NCBI GenBank assembly: GCA_021775855.1
Contig: JAJFGZ010000050.1
Coordinates: 23,335-87,334, forward strand
From: Hyphomicrobiales bacterium
Lineage (GTDB): Bacteria; Pseudomonadota; Alphaproteobacteria; Rhizobiales; NORP267
Direction: 5' to 3'
Length of the DNA stretch: 64,000 nt
Made by a program: the position numbers and the translations under genes. Positions within the stretch are counted from its first letter, which is position 1, and the number at the start of each line of letters is the position of its first letter. Below, in pieces: positions 1,288 to 8,965 of this stretch. The notes under the pieces are model-generated. The model was not told the DNA's origin and searched no databases. It was given only the letters and a program-made list of their open reading frames with translations.

Positions 1288-2229
1288 TTACTCAACCTGT
1301 TCGAGAACCAAGCGAAATCCAACAAGTATATGCTTGATGCCGTTGGGCCGGGAGTGGCGTGCTGACGGACGGCAAATTCCGCACCCCCTATCGTCCCAGG
1401 ACCCGCCTTTGACGATCCAGCGACCCGGATTTGCGGGCGTTGACGTCCACTCAAATACCTGTCCAGCCGGGTCGAGCATGCCAAACGGACTTTCGCCGGC
1501 GGGGAATTGTCCAACCGGCATCGTATCGAACGGACCGCCGTCATGGCTGTTCAACAGATTGCTGTCAAAGTCTTCGCCCCACGGGAATCTCCGTCCGTCG
1601 GTTCCCCGCGCCGCTTTTTCCCATTCGGCCTCGCTCGGCAGCCGCCAGACGGCTCCCGTCCGGGTGCTTAGCCATTCGGCATATGCCTCAGCGTCATCAT
1701 GGGAGACCATCACAATGGGGTGGTTTTCCCGCCCCTCTGGGGGCCTGCCGTCCAGCCAGGCGTACCGCCGCGTGCGCTCGTACGGATGGATCAATCCGTA
1801 ACCTTCCCAGGTTTCACGATCGACGTCCGGGGCGCGGTAACCTGTATCAGCGACAAACAGCGCGTAGTCAGCGTTGGTCACCAGATTCTTCATAATATTG
1901 TAGGCGGGCAGGTCTACGTTTTGCCGCTCAGGCTCGCTTTCGTACCAGCGACCGCGTCTTGTGGCGCTATGGCCATATGCTGCTTCGTCCAACAGGTAGG
2001 CCGCCTCGCGTTCGGCGCGGTCAGAACCGGTAATATAGGGGCCAGAGGGAATTAAAATTGTCTCCGGCGCGGGGATACCCGGCCCCACTTCGTTTTCGCC
2101 CGCCCGGGCGGCAACGGCGTACAAAATTGTTGCCGTGCACAAAATAAATAAAACCCGAAACACGGAAGCTGGAATCAGCTCCGCATTCCGGGTTCCTAAT
2201 CTGGACGGCGACCGAAAAGAATTGGTCAT
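1288..2229 (-). CDS. FGE/SUMF1/EgtB/PvdO-family (formylglycine-generating-enzyme-like) protein with N-terminal membrane anchor or signal
   Basis: 313-aa ORF with FGE-sulfatase-domain hallmarks: HPIVMVSHDDAEAYAEWL, WRLPSEAEWEKAARG, FPWG, GQVFEWT, KGGSW...VGFRLV. Hydrophobic N-terminal segment VFRVLFILCTATILYAVAARA. A CGIC pair follows GGSW. Confidence 0.85.
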   Translation of the reverse strand: MTNSFRSPSRLGTRNAELIPASVFRVLFILCTATILYAVAARAGENEVGPGIPAPETILIPSGPYITGSDRAEREAAYLLDEAAYGHSATRRGRWYESEPERQNVDLPAYNIMKNLVTNADYALFVADTGYRAPDVDRETWEGYGLIHPYERTRRYAWLDGRPPEGRENHPIVMVSHDDAEAYAEWLSTRTGAVWRLPSEAEWEKAARGTDGRRFPWGEDFDSNLLNSHDGGPFDTMPVGQFPAGESPFGMLDPAGQVFEWTSTPANPGRWIVKGGSWDDRGCGICRPSARHSRPNGIKHILVGFRLVLEQVE

Positions 2230-2253: not shown

Positions 2254-2547
2254 CTAGTCTGCCGAGCAGGGGTTGCAGCCAGCCGCGGCGCACGGGTTTT
2301 TCGCCGCGCAAGGATTGCAGGCGCCGCATGCCGAAGCGCCACAAGCAGATGCGGCACACGGATTACAGGCTGCACAAGCACCGCATGCGCCACAGGCGCC
2401 ACAGGCACCACACGCATCGCTGCTTGCATACGCGGAGGAAGAACCCGCGACGGAAGCTGTCAGCATGACCGGGGCGGCAAGCGCCAGGCCAAGGACGACA
2501 GGTAATATAGCTGTGGAGGACAGAAGGCTTCTTTTATTGCTACTCAT
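2254..2547 (-). CDS. 97-aa secreted cysteine-ladder peptide (41-aa signal-like leader plus 56-aa core with 14 Cys)
   Basis: ORF-track protein MSSNKRSLLSSTAILPVVLGLALAAPVMLTASVAGSSSAYA|SSDACGACGACGACGACAACNPCAASACGASACGACNPCAAKNPCAAAGCNPCSAD. GAGGGAG Shine-Dalgarno upstream. Same repeat units and same post-signal SSD[AG]CGACGAC start as the 1-1074 protein. Confidence 0.75.
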   Translation of the reverse strand: MSSNKRSLLSSTAILPVVLGLALAAPVMLTASVAGSSSAYASSDACGACGACGACGACAACNPCAASACGASACGACNPCAAKNPCAAAGCNPCSAD

Positions 2548-2643: not shown

Positions 2644-3126
2644 CTAATTTACGACAATCGAATAGTTCGGGGTGGGGTTGAGTGGACACGAATACACATA
2701 CTGGATTCCCGCCTCCAGAACGACTTCATAGTCAAGCGTGGTTCCCGTATTGAGTCCACCGCCTGAAACACTCGTCTTGGTCAATTTATGTATCGGATTG
2801 CCAAGCTGGTAATCAGTTTCCCGCAACCAGAACCCGAGCGGGTACGGGACATTGCGGTTTTCAACCCGGAAAATATATCGCCCTGGCGCCAGGTTCAGAA
2901 CCTTGGCCTCGGCCAATCGCGCTTCGCCCGATTCGTTGTTGATATCGACACAATCAGCGGCCGACATGGGCATATATCCCCGGTTGACGTCGTTCTCCGA
3001 TTCAAGGAACTGACACCCGACCTGGGTCAAATTAATAATAGTTGCTTCCTGCGCTCCAACCGGTGAAGCGATACCCGCTACACCGAACAAAATCGCACTG
3101 GTCAGCCATTGAAGCTTGCTGAGCAT
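2644..3126 (-). CDS. Secreted hypothetical protein (~160 aa, beta-rich, possibly cupredoxin/Ig-like sandwich)
   Basis: I prefer the internal ATG at 3126 (MLSKLQWLTSAILFGVAGIASPVGAQE is signal-like). The longer 192-aa ORF start lacks a signal peptide. No family recognised. PGRYIFRVENRN and YVYSCPLNP resemble beta-sandwich proteins, but no His/Met copper ligand set is visible. Confidence 0.6.
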   Translation of the reverse strand: MLSKLQWLTSAILFGVAGIASPVGAQEATIINLTQVGCQFLESENDVNRGYMPMSAADCVDINNESGEARLAEAKVLNLAPGRYIFRVENRNVPYPLGFWLRETDYQLGNPIHKLTKTSVSGGGLNTGTTLDYEVVLEAGIQYVYSCPLNPTPNYSIVVN

Positions 3127-3274: not shown

Positions 3275-4003
3275 TCAGGACTGTTTTTTGATGGCCTTTT
3301 CAACCGCGGTCGATTGTTTTTTCACGTCTACCTTTAGAATCGACGTGAGTTCAAGTTCGCGGTCTTCATACACATCCTTGTCAGGATGACTTTCCTGCCA
3401 ATCCGCAATGACGCGGTCGCGTTCCCACAACAAGGCCTCGATTTGCGGGCGGAACAAGATAATCATCGCCGAAATCCAGTGATTGGTGGCGAGGCACGGG
3501 TAGGTGTGATCCATGAGAAACCCGTCGAGGAGGCGAATTGCGTCTTCGGCAGAATAAAAAGTTTCTCCTGTCACCCACCTGTTTGTTGAAAATAACCCGA
3601 TCGGATAGCCGGGACGGTTCATCGAGACCGCGATCAAATGGCAAATCGCGTCCTTTCCGGATGGAACCTCGGCATCGCCGCTATACGGTACGGGTTCGAT
3701 ATCATCCGGCATCCCTCCCGAGCGCATGAAAGTATGAAAATGGCCATGTTCACCCGATTCCTTGCGGTGGGCGTGGTAATAATATTGGCTCTTGGTCTCG
3801 CTATCGAAAATATCGCCCTTGGGGAAGTGATCGAATTCTACAAACTTTCCCTGATTGGCGAGACATTGACCGACCACATTTGCGTTGGCCTTGCGCAGGA
3901 CCCTGTAACATTCTTCGATGCGCAGGCTGGCTGCCCTCATGGCCTCGAGTTGTTCGGGCGGCAAATCGCTGAATTCTGTCTTGAATTTCATCGCTTGTTC
4001 CAT
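3275..4003 (-). CDS. Conserved-looking hypothetical cytoplasmic protein with a His-rich motif
   Basis: 242-aa ORF without a signal peptide. Contains YYYHAHRKESGEHGHFHTF (6 His in 19 residues). Co-oriented and upstream of the cysteine-ladder cluster. Family not recognised. Confidence 0.55.
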   Translation of the reverse strand: MEQAMKFKTEFSDLPPEQLEAMRAASLRIEECYRVLRKANANVVGQCLANQGKFVEFDHFPKGDIFDSETKSQYYYHAHRKESGEHGHFHTFMRSGGMPDDIEPVPYSGDAEVPSGKDAICHLIAVSMNRPGYPIGLFSTNRWVTGETFYSAEDAIRLLDGFLMDHTYPCLATNHWISAMIILFRPQIEALLWERDRVIADWQESHPDKDVYEDRELELTSILKVDVKKQSTAVEKAIKKQS

Positions 4004-4275
4004 TGCTCTTCAAAAAGGCATGGCCAAAGCCACGATGCTGGATCCCGGTTTGCCCGCAATGGGATGAAGTTACAAAAGCACAATTATTCGCCGGGATGAA
4101 GTTCAAAAACACGTGATCGGCGGCGCCGGCGGGACAGAATAGCGGTCTGGTAAATTCTGTATGGACATTGTTGCCAAATTGTCACGGTTCGTTATTAGAA
4201 TCGTGGTAGAGGCAGTGAATCCATTGCCAAAATGGCTGGATTCGGGTTTTGTTGCACAATATCTGAACAATTTCA

Positions 4276-4869
4276 TTGCCCAAACTGGAGCAAATTATGC
4301 GCACGAATCTTATCTTTGCAGGTCTGCTGGCATTCGCAATGTCGGTTTCCGTATCAGGCCAGGCCAATGCTCTGGGTGAATCCGGCGATGTTACGGTTGC
4401 TGTCGGAGGCGGCGGTTTCTTTAGCGGCGGTTCTACCCGCAGCGTCGTTCGCTACGAAACACAATATTCGCCTGGCACAATCGTCATCAGCACCGAGGAT
4501 CGCAAGCTGTATCTGGTGCAGGATAACGGTCGCGCAATCTCCTACAGCGTCGGCGTTGGACGTCCCGGATTCCAGTGGGGCGGCACCATGCGGATTTCTC
4601 GCAAAGCCGAGTGGCCGGGCTGGACGCCGCCACCTGCCATGCGCCGGCGCCAACCTTATCTGCCGGCCTTTGTTCCTGGCGGGATCAACAATCCCCTTGG
4701 AGCGCGCGCCATGTATCTCGGCTCAAGCCTATACAGAATTCACGGAACGACTGAAGCCGATACGATCGGATCAGCGGTTTCGTCAGGATGCATCCGCATG
4801 CTGAATGAAGATGTGGAAGAATTGTACGAGATGGTCAATGTAGGCACGCGCGTGGTGGTTCAACGCTAG
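4276..4869 (+). CDS. L,D-transpeptidase (YkuD/ErfK family), secreted
   Basis: Signal-like N-terminus. YkuD-domain motifs include the catalytic HGT...SSGCIRM (RIHGTTEADTIGSAVSSGCIRMLNEDV). Confidence 0.85.
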   Translation: MPKLEQIMRTNLIFAGLLAFAMSVSVSGQANALGESGDVTVAVGGGGFFSGGSTRSVVRYETQYSPGTIVISTEDRKLYLVQDNGRAISYSVGVGRPGFQWGGTMRISRKAEWPGWTPPPAMRRRQPYLPAFVPGGINNPLGARAMYLGSSLYRIHGTTEADTIGSAVSSGCIRMLNEDVEELYEMVNVGTRVVVQR

Positions 4870-4891
4870 GCCAACTTTCCAGCATTACAAG

Positions 4892-4923
4892 AAGCCCGCT
4901 GCCTCCTCGCGGCGGGCTTTTTA
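4892..4923 (+). terminator. Rho-independent terminator after the L,D-transpeptidase gene
   Basis: Stem AAGCCCGC (4892-4899) pairs with GCGGGCTT (4912-4919), followed by a T-run (CTTTTT). It lies between convergent genes. Confidence 0.7.
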
Positions 4924-4939
4924 CTATCTGGACTGCGGT

Positions 4940-5365
4940 TTAATCTGGAATGACGGCCGTTGCCTCGATCTCGATGCGGGCCCGATCTTCCATCAGGGAG
5001 ACCACTTCGACCACCGCCATGACCGGATAATGCTGGCCGAAAGCTTCGCGATACGCGGCACCAACGCCAGCAAGCGATGCCAGGTATTCCTGTTTGTCAA
5101 CCACGTACCAGGTCAGCCGGGTGATGTGTTCAGGCTTGCCGCCGGCCGCATTTAAAATTGCAACGATGTTCCGAAATGCCATGGCGGCCTGTTCGGCAAA
5201 ATCGTCGCTCTCAAATTCTTCCATGGAATTCCAGCCTATCTGGCCAGCGACGAATACCGTGCGTCCACGGGCAATGATGCCCTGGGAATACCCTTTTGGG
5301 CGGGGCCAGCCTTCCGGCAAAACTGATTGATGGACCATTTTCTCTCCGATTTCTTTCAGATTCAC
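4940..5365 (-). CDS. RidA/YjgF/TdcF-family reactive-intermediate deaminase
   Basis: 141 aa. Contains GYSQGIIARGRTVFVAGQIG and a C-terminal ARIEIEATA, typical of the YjgF/RidA fold. Confidence 0.8.
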   Translation of the reverse strand: MNLKEIGEKMVHQSVLPEGWPRPKGYSQGIIARGRTVFVAGQIGWNSMEEFESDDFAEQAAMAFRNIVAILNAAGGKPEHITRLTWYVVDKQEYLASLAGVGAAYREAFGQHYPVMAVVEVVSLMEDRARIEIEATAVIPD

Positions 5366-6960
5366 CCGTTCAGGCGCAATTTGAAACGTTGCAATTTGCC
5401 GGTCTGGGTTTTTGGCAAACTGTCCACGAATTCGATTTCGCGGGGATATTTGTATGGTGCGATTGCTTCTTTGGCGTGGTCCTGAAGGGATTTCGCCAAT
5501 GTATCTGATGGTTTGATGCCGGGGCCTGGCACAACAAACGCCTTAACGATTGAACCGCGCATATTATCGGGTTTACCGACAACCGCGCATTCACCGACCG
5601 CCGAATGCTCAAGCAGAGCGTTTTCAACCTCCGGACCGGCAATATTGTAGCCAGCAGAAATGATCATGTCGTCGGCGCGGGCCTGGTACCAAAAGAATCC
5701 ATCCTCATCCATTGAGAAGGTATCGCCGGTCAGGTTCCAACCATCTTGCACATAGTTCGTTTGCCGGTCGTCGGCGAGATAGCGGCAACCGGTTGGCCCC
5801 TTGACCGCGAGCCGGCCAACGCTGCCAATCGGTAGATCGTTACCATCCTCGTCGACAATCTTGCCCTGAAAACCTGGTACCATTGTTCCCGTTGAACCCG
5901 GGACCAGGCCGGCCTCAGACGACGATATCATCGTGTGCAGCATTTCGGTCGAGCCGATCCCGTCAAACAGCCGCAATCCACTCGCATTCAGAAACCCATC
6001 GTACGTCGCCTTCGGTAAATGTTCACCGGCCGAAATACCCCGCCTCAGGCTCGAAATATCACGGCCCTCCAAAAGCGATGTCATCGCGCGATACGCCGTA
6101 GGAGCGGTGAATAGAATGGTCGCCCGGTAGTCTTCGATCACATCCAGCAGGTCGGCCGGTGTTGTAGCCTCAGCCAATACAGTAGCGGCGCCTGCATGGA
6201 GTGGGAACAGGGCAAGTCCACCTAGACCGAACGTAAAAGCCAACGGCGGCGACCCGCAAAATATATCGTCCGGGGTCGGGTCGATAACATGGTTGCAAAA
6301 ACCGTCGCATACCGCCAGCAAATCCCGATGGAAATGCATCGTCCCCTTGGGTTTGCCGGTCGTGCCGGACGTAAATGCAATCAGACAAATATCGTCGGCC
6401 CGGCATTCATACGGCCTGAAAACGTCTGACTTGGTTCCCATCAGAGCTTCAAGTTCATTATCAGATGATGCATCGAAATATCTGATTTTTTTCAGAAATT
6501 CCGAATTACGCGTTGTATTTTTTAGTTCATGTTGGAGACGAATATCGCAAAGCGCGTGGCTGATTTCTGCTTTATCGATAATCACGTCCAATTCGCCGGC
6601 GCGCAATAATGGCATTGTGCCAACTGCGATACCGCCGGCGCGGATCACAGCCAGGTACGCGGCGACCATCATCGGGTTGTTGCCGGAGCGCAGCAAGACC
6701 CGGTTGCCGGGTATCAAACCCATATCCTCGACCAGGACATGCGCGATCTGGTTCACAGCCGCTGCCAGTCCGGCGTAGCTCCAGTTGCCGAAAGGGGAAT
6801 AAATCGCGGTCGCGTCACCGCGGCCGTTCGCCAGCCAATGATCAAGAAACCGTGCCGTACAGTTCATCATATCCGGGTACTGGTATGCCGGGTGGCTGAA
6901 ATCCAGATCCGGCCAATGCGCGGCGGGCGGTAGATTATCCCGTGCAAACGTGTCGATCAT
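5362..6960 (-). CDS. AMP-dependent acyl/aryl-CoA ligase (benzoate/aminobenzoate-CoA-ligase-like)
   Basis: 532 aa. AMP-binding signature [11 protein letters not shown], plus GDT...[16 protein letters not shown] and a C-terminal KTQTGKLQR. Overlaps neighbouring genes by 4 nt on each side. Confidence 0.85.
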
Positions 6961-8150
6961 TTGCCGCCGCCCTGGCGCTGGGCCTGCCGGGCGTCTTCGG
7001 CCTGACGCGCGATCACGATTTTTTGTACCTCGGTCGCTCCCTCGTAAATCCGCAGCGCACGAATATCGCGGTACAATTCCTCGACCTTGTTGCCTGAGCG
7101 GACCCCCTCCCCGCCATGAAGCTGGACCGCCATATCGATGATCTTCTGGGCTTCCTCGGTCGCGAACATTTTGGCCATCGAGGCTTCCCGGCTGATCCGC
7201 GGGGCGCCCTGGTCCTTGGTCCAGGCGGCCCGATAAATCAGTAGGGCGGCGGCATCGATCGCGGTTGCCATATCGGCGATCATGGCTTGCGGCATTTGCA
7301 GGTCCGCGAGGCGGTCCTCACCGATCATGCGGCTGGCGGTGTGATCGAGCGCCTCGTCGTGGGCGCGGCGCGCCAATCCCAGTGCGGCAGCGCCAACGGT
7401 GGAGCGGAACACATCGAGGGTCGCCATGGCGATTTTGAACCCGTCGCCCGGTTTACCAAGCATGTCGGCAGCAGGCACCCGACAATCCGTCAGCCGGAGC
7501 CGCGCCAACGGATGCGGCGCGATCACATCGATCCGCTCGACAATTTCAAACCCCAGCGTGTCGGCGGGGACAACAAAGGCTGACAGGCCTTTGGCTCCAG
7601 GGGCTTCACCTGTACGGGCGAACACCACGTAGTGACCGGCGATACCTCCATTGGAAATCCAGGTTTTCTCACCGTTCAGGATATAGTCTTTTCCGTCAGG
7701 AACAGCGGACAGTGAAATGGCGGCGGCGTCCGATCCGGCGACAGGTTCGGTGAGGGCGAAGGCAGCCAGCGATTTACCTGACGCCACGGGCGGTAGAAAC
7801 CGGGCTTTGGTCTCGTCCGACCCAAACAGGGAAATCGGGCCCGTGCCGAGCCCCTGCATGGCGAAGGCGAAATCTGCCAAACCGTCGTGGCGAGCCAGGG
7901 TTTCGCGGATGATACAAAGCGAACGGACGTCAAGAATATCGGTGTTGCCCCCGTACGGTGCGACAACGGCGTGGGCGCATATTCCTGCCTGCCCCATAGC
8001 GGCTGCCAGACGGATGCAGCGCTCGTCCAGATCATCGGTCGAGGACATGATGGCGTGGACGTTGCCCGACGCCCAGTCATCAACCGTGCGGGCCAGATCG
8101 CGGTGCGTTTTCTCAAAGAAAGGCCAGTCCAGGAACGTCCGGTCGGGCAT
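6957..8150 (-). CDS. Acyl-CoA dehydrogenase
   Basis: 397 aa. ACAD-like motifs: [19 protein letters not shown], and C-terminal [16 protein letters not shown]. Confidence 0.85.
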
Positions 8151-8152
8151 CT

Positions 8153-8965
8153 CTAATTGCCCTCAAATACCGGTTCGCGCTTTTCAGCGAAGGCTTCGAA
8201 AGCGCGGCGGAAATCCTTGGTCTGCATGCAGATCGCCTGGGCACGGGCCTCTTCTTCGATGGCTTCGTCCACGCCCATATCCCATTCGGTATGGAGCATC
8301 CGTTTGGTTATCCCGTGCGCAAAAGTCGGGCCGTCCGCGATCCGGTTGGCCATTTTGGTGGCCTCCTCCAAAAGCGCACCTGGTTCGCACAAGCGGTTAT
8401 AAAAACCCCAGCGCTCGGCCTCGTCGCCGGGCATCGCGCGGCCGGTATAGAGCAATTCTGAAGTGCGGCCATGACCGATGATCCGGGGCAGCATGTTGCA
8501 CGCCCCCATGTCGCACCCGGCCAGGCCGACCTTTACAAACAGGAAGGCAACTTTTGACCTGGCGGTGCCGTAGCGCAGGTCAGACCCCATCGCGAGGCAG
8601 GCCCCGGCACCGACGCATATGCCATCGATTGCCGCAATTATCGGCTGCGGGCAGGCACGCATGGCGCGCACCACCGCGCCGGTCATGCGGGTAAATTTGA
8701 GCAGGTCGGGCATGCTCATTTTGGTCAATGGCTCGATGATTTCGAAGACGTCGCCACCAGCACAGAAATTGTCCCCCGCCCCTGTCAGAACGATCGACTT
8801 GATATCTTCATCGTGGCAGAGCGCTTCGAATGTCTGGCGCAACTCGGCGTAGGATTCAAACGTCAGCGGGTTCTTCCTGTCGGGGCGATTCAGGGTCAAG
8901 GTAGCCACCTTGCCATCGACCTCCCAGAGGAAATGCCGGGCCTTGTAATCGGTCAAGTTTGTCAT
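8153..8965 (-). CDS. Enoyl-CoA hydratase/isomerase (crotonase) family
   Basis: 270 aa. Contains [19 protein letters not shown] and [21 protein letters not shown] (crotonase oxyanion-hole pattern). Confidence 0.85.

Follow-up and report, generated by a model that had tools for sequence, protein, structure and literature searches.

The window analysed here, a stretch of 64,000 nucleotides from a Hyphomicrobiales bacterium (contig JAJFGZ010000050.1, positions 23,335 to 87,334), carries on its minus strand a gene of 97 codons (2254-2547, ATG start, stop codon at 2254-2256) for a small cysteine-rich peptide built of NPC (Asn-Pro-Cys) and CxxC repeats. The gene, recognised from its open reading frame (ORF), its homologues and its ratio of nonsynonymous to synonymous substitution rates (dN/dS), stands in a group read from the minus strand in the order DUF6969 protein, 160-residue protein, small peptide, enzyme resembling the formylglycine-generating enzyme (FGE), and a protein in which a long cysteine ladder precedes a cytochrome P460 domain (ladder-P460). 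In an identical public contig, L001, though not in the window, a staphylococcal-nuclease-like protein is the last member (related loci are designated by L numbers, family proteins by P numbers). An earlier note on this DNA had described the peptide as precursor-like, with a 41-residue leader ending in AxA and export by the Sec route. Our analysis bears out both the ORF and its leader, places the peptide in an undescribed and uncurated family of secreted NPC/CxxC-repeat peptides, and suggests a new peptide-modifying or copper-handling system that would operate outside the cytoplasm.

A secreted cysteine-repeat peptide and its family

The product consists of a leader of 41 residues, MSSNKRSLLSSTAILPVVLGLALAAPVMLTASVAGSSSAYA (2425-2547, minus strand), ending in A-Y-A, followed by a core of 56 residues, SSDACGACGACGACGACAACNPCAASACGASACGACNPCAAKNPCAAAGCNPCSAD (2257-2424). 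The core is made of CGAC, ASACG and CNPC units and contains 14 cysteines (14/56, 25%); there is one lysine in the whole peptide. A Shine-Dalgarno-like GAGGGAG lies 8 nucleotides upstream of the ATG (2556-2562) and is kept in L173 and L174, where it is visible as an in-frame upstream 'PEG'. As read from its sequence, the leader resembles a Sec-type signal peptide, with positions 5-6 basic, an extended hydrophobic stretch and A-Y-A occupying -3/-1, features that support the Sec-type export claimed earlier. In the family alignment, L8, P16, L19, G20, L21, A39 and A41 of the leader are invariant, and Y40 is nearly so. The leader is probably cut at AYA|S, which fits the -3/-1 rule; it may otherwise be cleaved at ALA|A (residues 24/25) or serve as an uncleaved signal anchor. 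That the peptide is exported appears very likely. AlphaFold2, run with the family alignment, gave no confident structure (predicted local distance difference test score, pLDDT, about 40, no secondary structure), a result usable as a sign of disorder only, and the core is predicted to be unstructured. Pfam and NCBIfam contained no match for the peptide or for six of its relatives, a promoter and terminator scan found nothing beyond the level of shuffled sequence, and Rfam and tRNA scans of the window returned no matches.

Such an ORF might have arisen by chance in GC-rich repetitive DNA, the real gene, if any, lying on the opposite strand, or be a decaying copy of the ladder gene's 5' end; another ORF, of 117 amino acids, overlaps it on the plus strand, and gene callers left the 97-residue ORF uncalled. 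The pattern of substitution argues against a non-functional ORF. Among three orthologues (the window, L173 and L174, whose enzymes are about 81% identical), dN/dS in the 97-residue frame lay at 0.05-0.15 in the leader, at 0.07-0.20 in the core and at about 0.10 in the adjacent enzyme gene, with a dS of 0.7-1.2. Insertions and deletions among the three small genes are in frame and comprise 6-7 codons, and CGAC and CNPC units swap between close orthologues while the cysteine spacing is unchanged. In two Denitrobaculum-type genomes (L002 and L003), the small genes differ by 3 nucleotides, all at synonymous third positions of this frame, and the ladder genes differ solely by in-frame gain or loss of repeat units. 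The Shine-Dalgarno sequence is conserved, and a separate small gene is kept from alpha- to gammaproteobacteria. We regard it as practically certain that the ORF is a real gene; the spurious reading is essentially excluded and retains hardly any probability.

Selection on the repeats acts at the amino-acid level, as had been claimed from their freely mixed synonymous codons. Codon counts confirm this mixing in both genes: the core of the small peptide uses TGT 7 times and TGC 7 times for cysteine and spreads alanine over four codons (4, 6, 5, 4), and the ladder gene uses the two cysteine codons 25 and 20 times and four codons each for alanine and glycine. Where small peptide and ladder share identical residues at the mature start, 10 of 13 differ in synonymous codon. 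Tandem Repeats Finder detected only weak arrays, with periods of 9, 15 or 30 and 66-82% matches. Slippage of a DNA unit as the origin of the repeats was ruled out because DNA periodicity is weak and codons are mixed. The dN/dS comparison across orthologues that the earlier note had proposed (0.05-0.20 over leader and core) points to protein-level selection as well, together with the scrambled codons and in-frame indels. Out-of-frame variation in repeat length, which that note had named as telling against its view, was not seen among the window, L173 and L174, nor between L002 and L003.

The exact 97-residue product is missing from a set of 15 billion predicted proteins that does cover this contig, and the gene is therefore unannotated. 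This is not an isolated case. Public gene calls on L001 split the ladder-P460 gene into two wrong-frame ORFs and a 166-residue ORF comprising P460 only, and gene callers usually cut off the cysteine-repeat extension of P460 proteins. NPC-repeat genes are systematically missed by gene callers.

The family comprises at least 258 clusters at 50% identity. A phmmer search found 17 relatives of 83-122 amino acids in marine alphaproteobacteria, including Denitrobaculum and Anderseniella, and in metagenomes. A profile built from 11 members and searched against 1.84 billion proteins retrieved 258 cluster representatives (50% identity) at E<=1e-3, 42 of them at E<=1e-10. Among 145 newly listed representatives, 141 have at least three NPC units and 125 a hydrophobic N-terminus. 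The usual repeat composition of the family is 21% Cys, 21% Ala, 17% Pro, 16% Asn and 12% Lys; the window peptide has an unusual dialect, with CGAC or ASACG standing in for many of the CNPC units. The literature searched contains no description of such peptides, nor of an aerobic FGE in the maturation of ribosomally synthesised peptides with post-translational modifications (RiPPs).

NPC repeats also occur in other settings. Modules fused to LysM were seen in P0144, P0173 and P0230, to c-type cytochrome domains in P0143, P0147, P0182, P0187 and P0238, and to OB-like domains in P0193, P0235 and P0280. In a Granulosicoccaceae metagenome-assembled genome (MAG), a lipoprotein gene (L010, 5966-6808) immediately upstream of an FGE-like gene encodes an LAISGC lipobox, a CNPCAAKA unit repeated 24 times in near-identical form and a tail of poly-Lys. 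Met/His-rich linkers are found in a few small members (P0215, P0252, P0257 and P0260), and P0177, P0215, P0228 and P0260 carry HH before the first repeat, as G-H-H or E-H-H after the predicted cleavage site, which recalls periplasmic copper-binding motifs. Altogether, Met/His features occur in about 4-8 of 108 small family members.

The ladder protein, the FGE-like enzyme and their neighbours

The window holds the 5' part of the ladder-P460 gene (1-1074, minus strand: leader, cysteine ladder and the start of the P460 domain), which runs off its end; the full gene, in L001 (7164-8417, equal to window 1074-<1), encodes 418 amino acids. A 41-residue leader ending in A-I-A is followed by about 209 residues of CGAC/ASACG/CNPC repeats and by a C-terminal domain that matches Pfam Cytochrome_P460 (PF16694, 33.4 bits against a cut-off of 27), contains the haem motif CAECH and is a distant relative of 7ead and 2je2. 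The same architecture recurs in L002, L004, L005, L008, L009, L089, L090, L092, L171 and L174, and in the literature searched no P460 protein is described with a 200-residue cysteine-repeat extension at its N-terminus. The ladder is split into halves by a non-repetitive spacer, ECVVPRLQQA, whose general form ([EKR]C[VFIY][VI]PRL, then Ala within 2-5 residues) is kept across genera in the ladders of window/L001, L002, L004, L005, L008, L089, L090 and L174.

The small peptide is a free-standing version of the ladder module. Over residues 41-54, 13 of 14 positions are identical between the two proteins (A|SSD[A/G]CGACGACGA). The AIA-ending leader, the common mature start and the arrangement of a short stand-alone beside a long multi-copy version had all been noticed before, and they hold. 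The resemblance extends to the choice of units: in all seven genomes that have both proteins, the 4-mer/5-mer profile of the small peptide comes closest to the ladder from the same genome, and 1 of 5040 permutations attains the observed mean. Gene conversion was considered as the source of this common dialect and rejected, the longest exact DNA match between the small gene and the ladder gene being no longer than in synonymous-codon shuffles. A dialect matched within each genome and not homogenised at the DNA level therefore indicates a protein-level constraint common to both proteins, in our view of the kind that a partner of both might impose.

A candidate for such a partner is encoded between them. 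The enzyme gene (1288-2229, minus strand) starts 24 nucleotides after the peptide stop codon and specifies a protein of 313 amino acids with its own signal peptide and an FGE-sulfatase domain (PF03781, E=1.4e-41, profile positions 2-254 of 255). Its nearest solved relatives are ToxD, CalU17, OvsA and EgtB, and true FGEs follow at about 1e-10. The enzyme defines a subfamily of more than 120 clusters at 58-81% identity, in which the motif KGGSWDDxGCG[VI]CRPAA[RQ]H, with C283 and C286, is invariant in 120 of 120 clusters. In the window, the codons of C283-G-I-C286 lie at 1372-1383 (minus strand). This CxxC was present at every close orthologue locus that could be read there; over 100 motif instances from other FGE-sulfatase proteins all lack it. 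In true FGE, two essential cysteines spaced as Cx4C in the loop after GGS[WY] (C269/C274 in T. curvata) bind Cu(I) with a K_D of about 1e-17 M; the enzyme acts on a peptide cysteine and requires an external two-electron donor, a dithiol reductant being needed in vitro and the natural donor being unknown (PMC5324649). The enzyme of the window has the domain of true FGE and, in the same loop, an invariant CxxC of other spacing and register in place of the Cx4C pair; from its sequence we infer that C283/C286 may form a variant thiolate metal site. The FGE client motif C-x-P-x-R does not occur in the repeats, which read C-N-P-C-A-A or C-G-A-C and have no Arg, and no sulfatase gene was found in related loci. 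The idea that CNPC mimics CxPxR was dropped, because the conserved unit is N-P-C and many units, reading A-N-P-C, have no Cys ahead of the Pro.

The enzyme orthologues bear signal peptides. In L093 a single ORF (3520-7509) joins a five-haem c-type cytochrome to a CxxC-type FGE domain and a second FGE domain, a fusion that argues for a periplasmic location of the enzyme and for a redox function. The signal peptides, this fusion and the c-type haem domain of the ladder, which matures in the periplasm, together place the enzyme subfamily and its likely chemistry in the periplasm. The L093 locus also holds DUF6969, cupredoxin-like and P460 genes; beside the fusion ORF lie a gene for an 84-residue KNPCAA-repeat peptide that has a single Cys in each repeat and lacks CxxC, and one for a cytochrome c with NPC repeats on both flanks. 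Another FGE-sulfatase subfamily, with the motif KGGSW[WF]DCxFYxCG[IV]SAPxFNR and thus the true-FGE Cx4C spacing, has no NPC genes nearby; it was seen in Nitrospirae, Deltaproteobacteria, Gallionellaceae, uncultured gammaproteobacterial MAGs and metagenome contigs (L016, L031, L037, L079, L114, L119, L125, L137, L138 and L145, in some of these near position 7550-7600).

We compared the neighbourhood over 20 related loci from alpha- and gammaproteobacteria and from metagenomes; scans of genomes and metagenomes gave at least about 10 true orthologue loci, and co-occurrence was counted on 17 loci. NPC proteins were encoded within 6-10 kb of a CxxC-type FGE gene in 14 of these 17 loci, in alpha- and gammaproteobacteria, as against none of 150 loci of other FGE-sulfatase paralogues (Fisher p = 8e-18). 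The linkage of the peptide to the enzyme gene lying between it and the ladder, an arrangement noticed before, is thus specific. In L088 the enzyme and a 93-residue NPC peptide are divergent neighbours with no P460, DUF6969 or other partner nearby, which indicates a direct pairing of enzyme and peptide.

Among the other neighbours, DUF6969 is the most constant companion of the CxxC-type FGE (15 of 20 loci; in L004 its gene overlaps the enzyme start by 4 nucleotides). In the window it lies at 3275-4003 (minus strand; Pfam PF22308, E=1e-78), has no signal peptide and shows an invariant His cluster (H59, H77, H79, H88, H90 and H122). We found no relative of it in the PDB by sequence or profile, and no literature. 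P460 domains occur in 12 of the 20 loci.

The gene directly upstream of the peptide gene (2644-3126, minus strand) encodes a secreted protein of 160 amino acids and is found in 8 of the 20 loci. Sequence and profile searches of the PDB gave nothing, and its more than 2100 homologues are all unannotated, none with a Pfam domain. The AlphaFold2 model (pLDDT 89.6), compared with Foldseek, resembles the cupredoxin domain of EfeO, azurin, amicyanin and small laccases (E 8e-5 to 1e-3), and we are confident, as far as a predicted model allows, that the protein has a cupredoxin beta-sandwich fold. The type-1 copper ligands His, Cys, His and Met are present only as Cys, with no His or Met in the loop; C38, C59 and C147 are invariant, the last within the ligand loop YSCPLNPTP.

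Two further genes were noted around the module. After ladder-P460, L001 carries at 8436-8924 a gene for a secreted 162-residue protein with a weak staphylococcal-nuclease-like signature, found in 5 of 20 loci (also L002, L005 and L174). A gene for a YkuD-type L,D-transpeptidase lies near the module in the window (4276-4869, plus strand), L004, L005 and L171; its proximity may be plain synteny or may reflect a connection with the cell envelope.

A putative periplasmic client and the rival roles

That the peptide works together with the FGE-like enzyme is, in our judgement, likely. The model that we favour goes further and makes the peptide a periplasmic, post-export client of the enzyme; taken in full, its chances lie slightly below even. 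According to this model the peptide, disordered and thiol-rich, would be exported by Sec as the free-standing form of the NPC/CxxC module of the ladder, and its leader would then be removed, probably at AYA|S. The cysteine repeats of small peptide and ladder would be presented to the co-encoded FGE-family enzyme, which would perform copper- and O2-dependent chemistry on them, yielding formylglycine or a related product, or would transfer Cu(I). The haem protein and the cupredoxin-like protein would act as electron partners. Covalent modification of the cysteines by the enzyme, taken by itself, is a tentative proposal that we hold somewhat more doubtful than probable. The copper link, the enzyme-client relation, the chemistry and the cleavage site are what we infer from these data.

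Several observations would suit a client. The core is predicted to be unstructured, and the leader is conserved above the core and above the signal peptides of the co-encoded secreted proteins, behaviour that seems client-like. In L173 and L174, identity to the window is 83-90% for the leader of the small peptide and 60-77% for its core. The corresponding values for signal peptide and mature part are 39-55% and 82-85% in the FGE-like enzyme, and 46-77% and 79-87% in the 160-residue protein. In these two comparisons the small peptide thus shows the pattern of a RiPP precursor, with a leader more conserved than the core. A copper or redox context for the model may be seen in the cupredoxin-fold neighbour and in the few relatives with Met/His linkers and a G-H-H mature start.

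Other observations weigh against the client model. L007 and L087 carry FGE and DUF6969 with no NPC ORF within 7-10 kb. In Denitrobaculum-type genomes peptide, ladder-P460 and DUF6969 are together and the enzyme orthologue (P0109) lies elsewhere, to judge from matching lengths apparently on the same 448-kb contig, peptide and ladder being more than 8 kb from any FGE gene, and the peptide is kept away from the enzyme in L002 and L169. The CxxC of the enzyme differs in spacing and register from the Cx4C of true FGE, and CxPxR is absent, the conserved unit being N-P-C and not C-x-P. DUF6969, the most constant partner, is without a signal peptide and without a role in the model. If removed at the membrane, a signal peptide cannot direct a soluble enzyme of the periplasm as RiPP leaders usually do. 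A ladder fused to a folded haem protein fits a working domain (for metal binding, tethering or redox) equally well or better, and the long version looks more like a functional appendage than like an excisable precursor. Modification, product and metal binding are all putative.

The main rival is that peptide and ladder stay unmodified and act as a periplasmic thiolate buffer or chaperone, binding soft metal ions, most likely Cu(I), through CxxC in the manner of metallothioneins, with the FGE-like enzyme, the cupredoxin-like protein and P460 as copper or redox partners. We think this unlikely, and it is the alternative to be taken most seriously: the usual family core has 21% Cys (25% in the window) and is dominated by CxxC, and its predicted disorder resembles that of apo-metallothionein. 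The Met/His-rich linkers and X-H-H N-termini of some members are typical of periplasmic copper binders, FGE-type cysteine pairs bind Cu(I) with the very low K_D given above, the ladder is joined permanently to a haem protein as one of its domains, a neighbour has the cupredoxin fold, and there is a weak, non-significant match to a eukaryotic metallothionein (E=0.35). However, in the oxidising periplasm free CxxC units would be prone to disulfide formation, related loci show no recurrent cop, cus or mer gene and no recurrent metal-sensing regulator, and the Met/His features are confined to the few small members counted above. Metal binding alone also leaves unexplained the specific pairing with an enzyme of an oxidase family. 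Another possibility is that the repeats are a dithiol/disulfide redox shuttle that gives or takes up electrons: they could, for example, feed two electrons as physiological donor to the FGE-like oxidase at work on some other substrate, or be a redox partner to the P460 haem. The CNPC unit recalls the CxPC motif of thioredoxin type, FGE wants an auxiliary dithiol reductant in vitro (PMC5324649), the ladder is covalently tethered to a haem domain, and the fusion of enzyme and multihaem cytochrome in L093 indicates that electron transfer is part of the system. Yet the loci show no recurrent DsbD- or CcdA-like system for re-reduction, a catalytic redox carrier would not usually bear redundant CxxC units by the dozen along a disordered chain, and the neighbourhood conserves no other candidate substrate of the enzyme; we give this role a small probability.

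Two further roles appear more improbable still. As a structural element of the cell envelope, the small peptide would be a cross-linker that builds or anchors a periplasmic or surface matrix through intermolecular disulfides or formylglycine-lysine bonds. The usual family composition of Cys, Ala, Pro, Asn and Lys with AAKK linkers would suit this, as would the lipoprotein of L010, the LysM fusions and the YkuD genes close by in several loci, but the window peptide has a single Lys, and the YkuD synteny is confined to related alphaproteobacteria; we consider it a slim chance. The last possibility is a classical bufferin-type RiPP precursor, modified in the cytoplasm before export by a leader-recognising enzyme, the signal peptide serving for secretion only. 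In its favour are the Sec signal and Cys-rich core, as in bufferins (PMC11626156), the conserved leader and the cytoplasmic DUF6969 protein constantly found nearby. Against it, the gene tables of related loci contain no MNIO (DUF692), DUF2063, radical SAM or YcaO gene, and those of the fully tabulated loci no RiPP recognition element (RRE) protein, dedicated protease or exporter. Since MNIO, radical SAM, YcaO and RRE proteins do not recur, Pfam finds no bufferin domain in the peptide and the sole recurring enzyme is itself exported, this route is very improbable.

Returning to the client model, its most far-reaching form would be a first wholly extracytoplasmic pathway of peptide maturation, in which a periplasmic, copper-dependent FGE-family oxidase converts many repeat cysteines, in peptides and in haem-fused proteins, to formylglycine or another oxidised residue with electrons given by the cytochrome and the cupredoxin-like protein. 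This is speculative and, in our estimate, unlikely. If it were true, poly-aldehyde or metal-binding peptides of a new class would result. Should the client model hold, the logic by which ribosomal peptides mature would reach into the periplasm, the aerobic FGE fold would have a function other than activating sulfatases, and the question of where FGE-type copper oxidases obtain their electrons in vivo would have a testable answer. Such a system would have stayed hidden because gene callers miss or mis-frame NPC genes.

Other results do not depend on modification of the peptides. Several hundred clusters of secreted cysteine-repeat peptides emerge as an uncurated family, and a matching N-terminal domain, previously unnoticed, is recognised on proteins of the cytochrome P460 family. 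To these comes a conserved set of partners (the CxxC-type FGE subfamily, DUF6969 and a cupredoxin-fold family of more than 2100 members). Hypothetical labels or wrong annotation are at present attached to every one of them. The analysis also shows that gene callers systematically overlook repeat genes of low complexity and high GC content.

Comparison with known systems

The earlier note had likened the locus to the precursor-plus-maturase logic of RiPPs, and this holds in part. The specific linkage to one enzyme and the leader conserved above the core are in its favour. In form the peptide would suit a RiPP precursor, a conserved 41-residue leader being followed by a variable Cys core of 56 residues, but the leader looks like a Sec signal peptide. 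The likeness fails in that the enzyme is exported, that no RRE protein, protease or exporter accompanies it, that the long version continues into a folded haem domain and that enzyme and peptide are separated in some genomes. Given the signal peptide of the enzyme and the L093 fusion, any modification would take place after export, when the signal peptide cannot serve as a classical RiPP leader.

With true FGE the enzyme shares the FGE-sulfatase fold and a cysteine pair in the loop after the GGS[WY] strand; the target of true FGE is a Cys within an unfolded stretch of peptide, in eukaryotes after translocation into the endoplasmic reticulum. The enzyme of the window differs in having CxxC in place of Cx4C, no CxPxR, no sulfatases nearby and candidate clients with 10-60 Cys each, and true FGEs are only its distant relatives (E about 1e-10). 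PvdO offers another parallel, as a periplasmic, signal-peptide-bearing FGE-fold protein that matures a secreted metal-binding peptide product, pyoverdine. In contrast to the enzyme described here, PvdO is without active-site cysteines and acts on a non-ribosomal chromophore, and the match between the two is weak (E=2.8e-11).

The ladder protein resembles the cytochrome P460/cytochrome c'-beta family in its C-terminal domain, above the Pfam threshold and with a CxxCH haem motif, and differs from it by the 200-residue Cys-repeat N-terminal extension. Metallothioneins and copper storage proteins (SmtA/BmtA, Csp1) have in common with the peptide a very high Cys content, CxxC/CxC spacing, a disordered apo form and a plausible buffering of soft metals. 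Csp1 folds into a four-helix bundle and leaves the cytoplasm by way of Tat. Unlike metallothioneins, the peptide is Sec-exported and not cytosolic, its repeats are built on Asn-Pro-Cys, and Pfam and NCBIfam gave no match to SmtA/BmtA-type or other metallothionein families for the 97-residue product.

Bufferins and oxazolins are described as MNIO-modified, Sec-exported RiPP copper binders (PMC11626156, PMC12452194). The peptide is not a bufferin, because there is no MNIO or DUF2063 at related loci and no bufferin domain: neither the peptide nor its six relatives matched the bufferin core (DUF2282, 6-Cys or EGKCG profile) in Pfam or NCBIfam. The enzyme, here of FGE-sulfatase fold, is itself exported, so that any chemistry would follow export, and the core is a low-complexity NPC/CxxC repeat, whereas that of bufferins is a folded domain of 4-6 Cys. 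The two have in common small precursors with a Sec signal (here with basic residues, hydrophobic stretch and AxA, and a hydrophobic N-terminus in 125 of 145 members), Cys-containing cores, action in the periplasm and a link to an oxidative metalloenzyme. Fusions of some bufferin domains with cytochrome c and with FGE-sulfatase domains have been noted (PMC12452194), and cytochrome c, FGE-sulfatase and cysteine peptide form the same trio of parts as at the present locus. By analogy, the system would seem to work most like that of the bufferins, joining a Sec-exported Cys peptide, an oxidative metalloenzyme and a copper theme.

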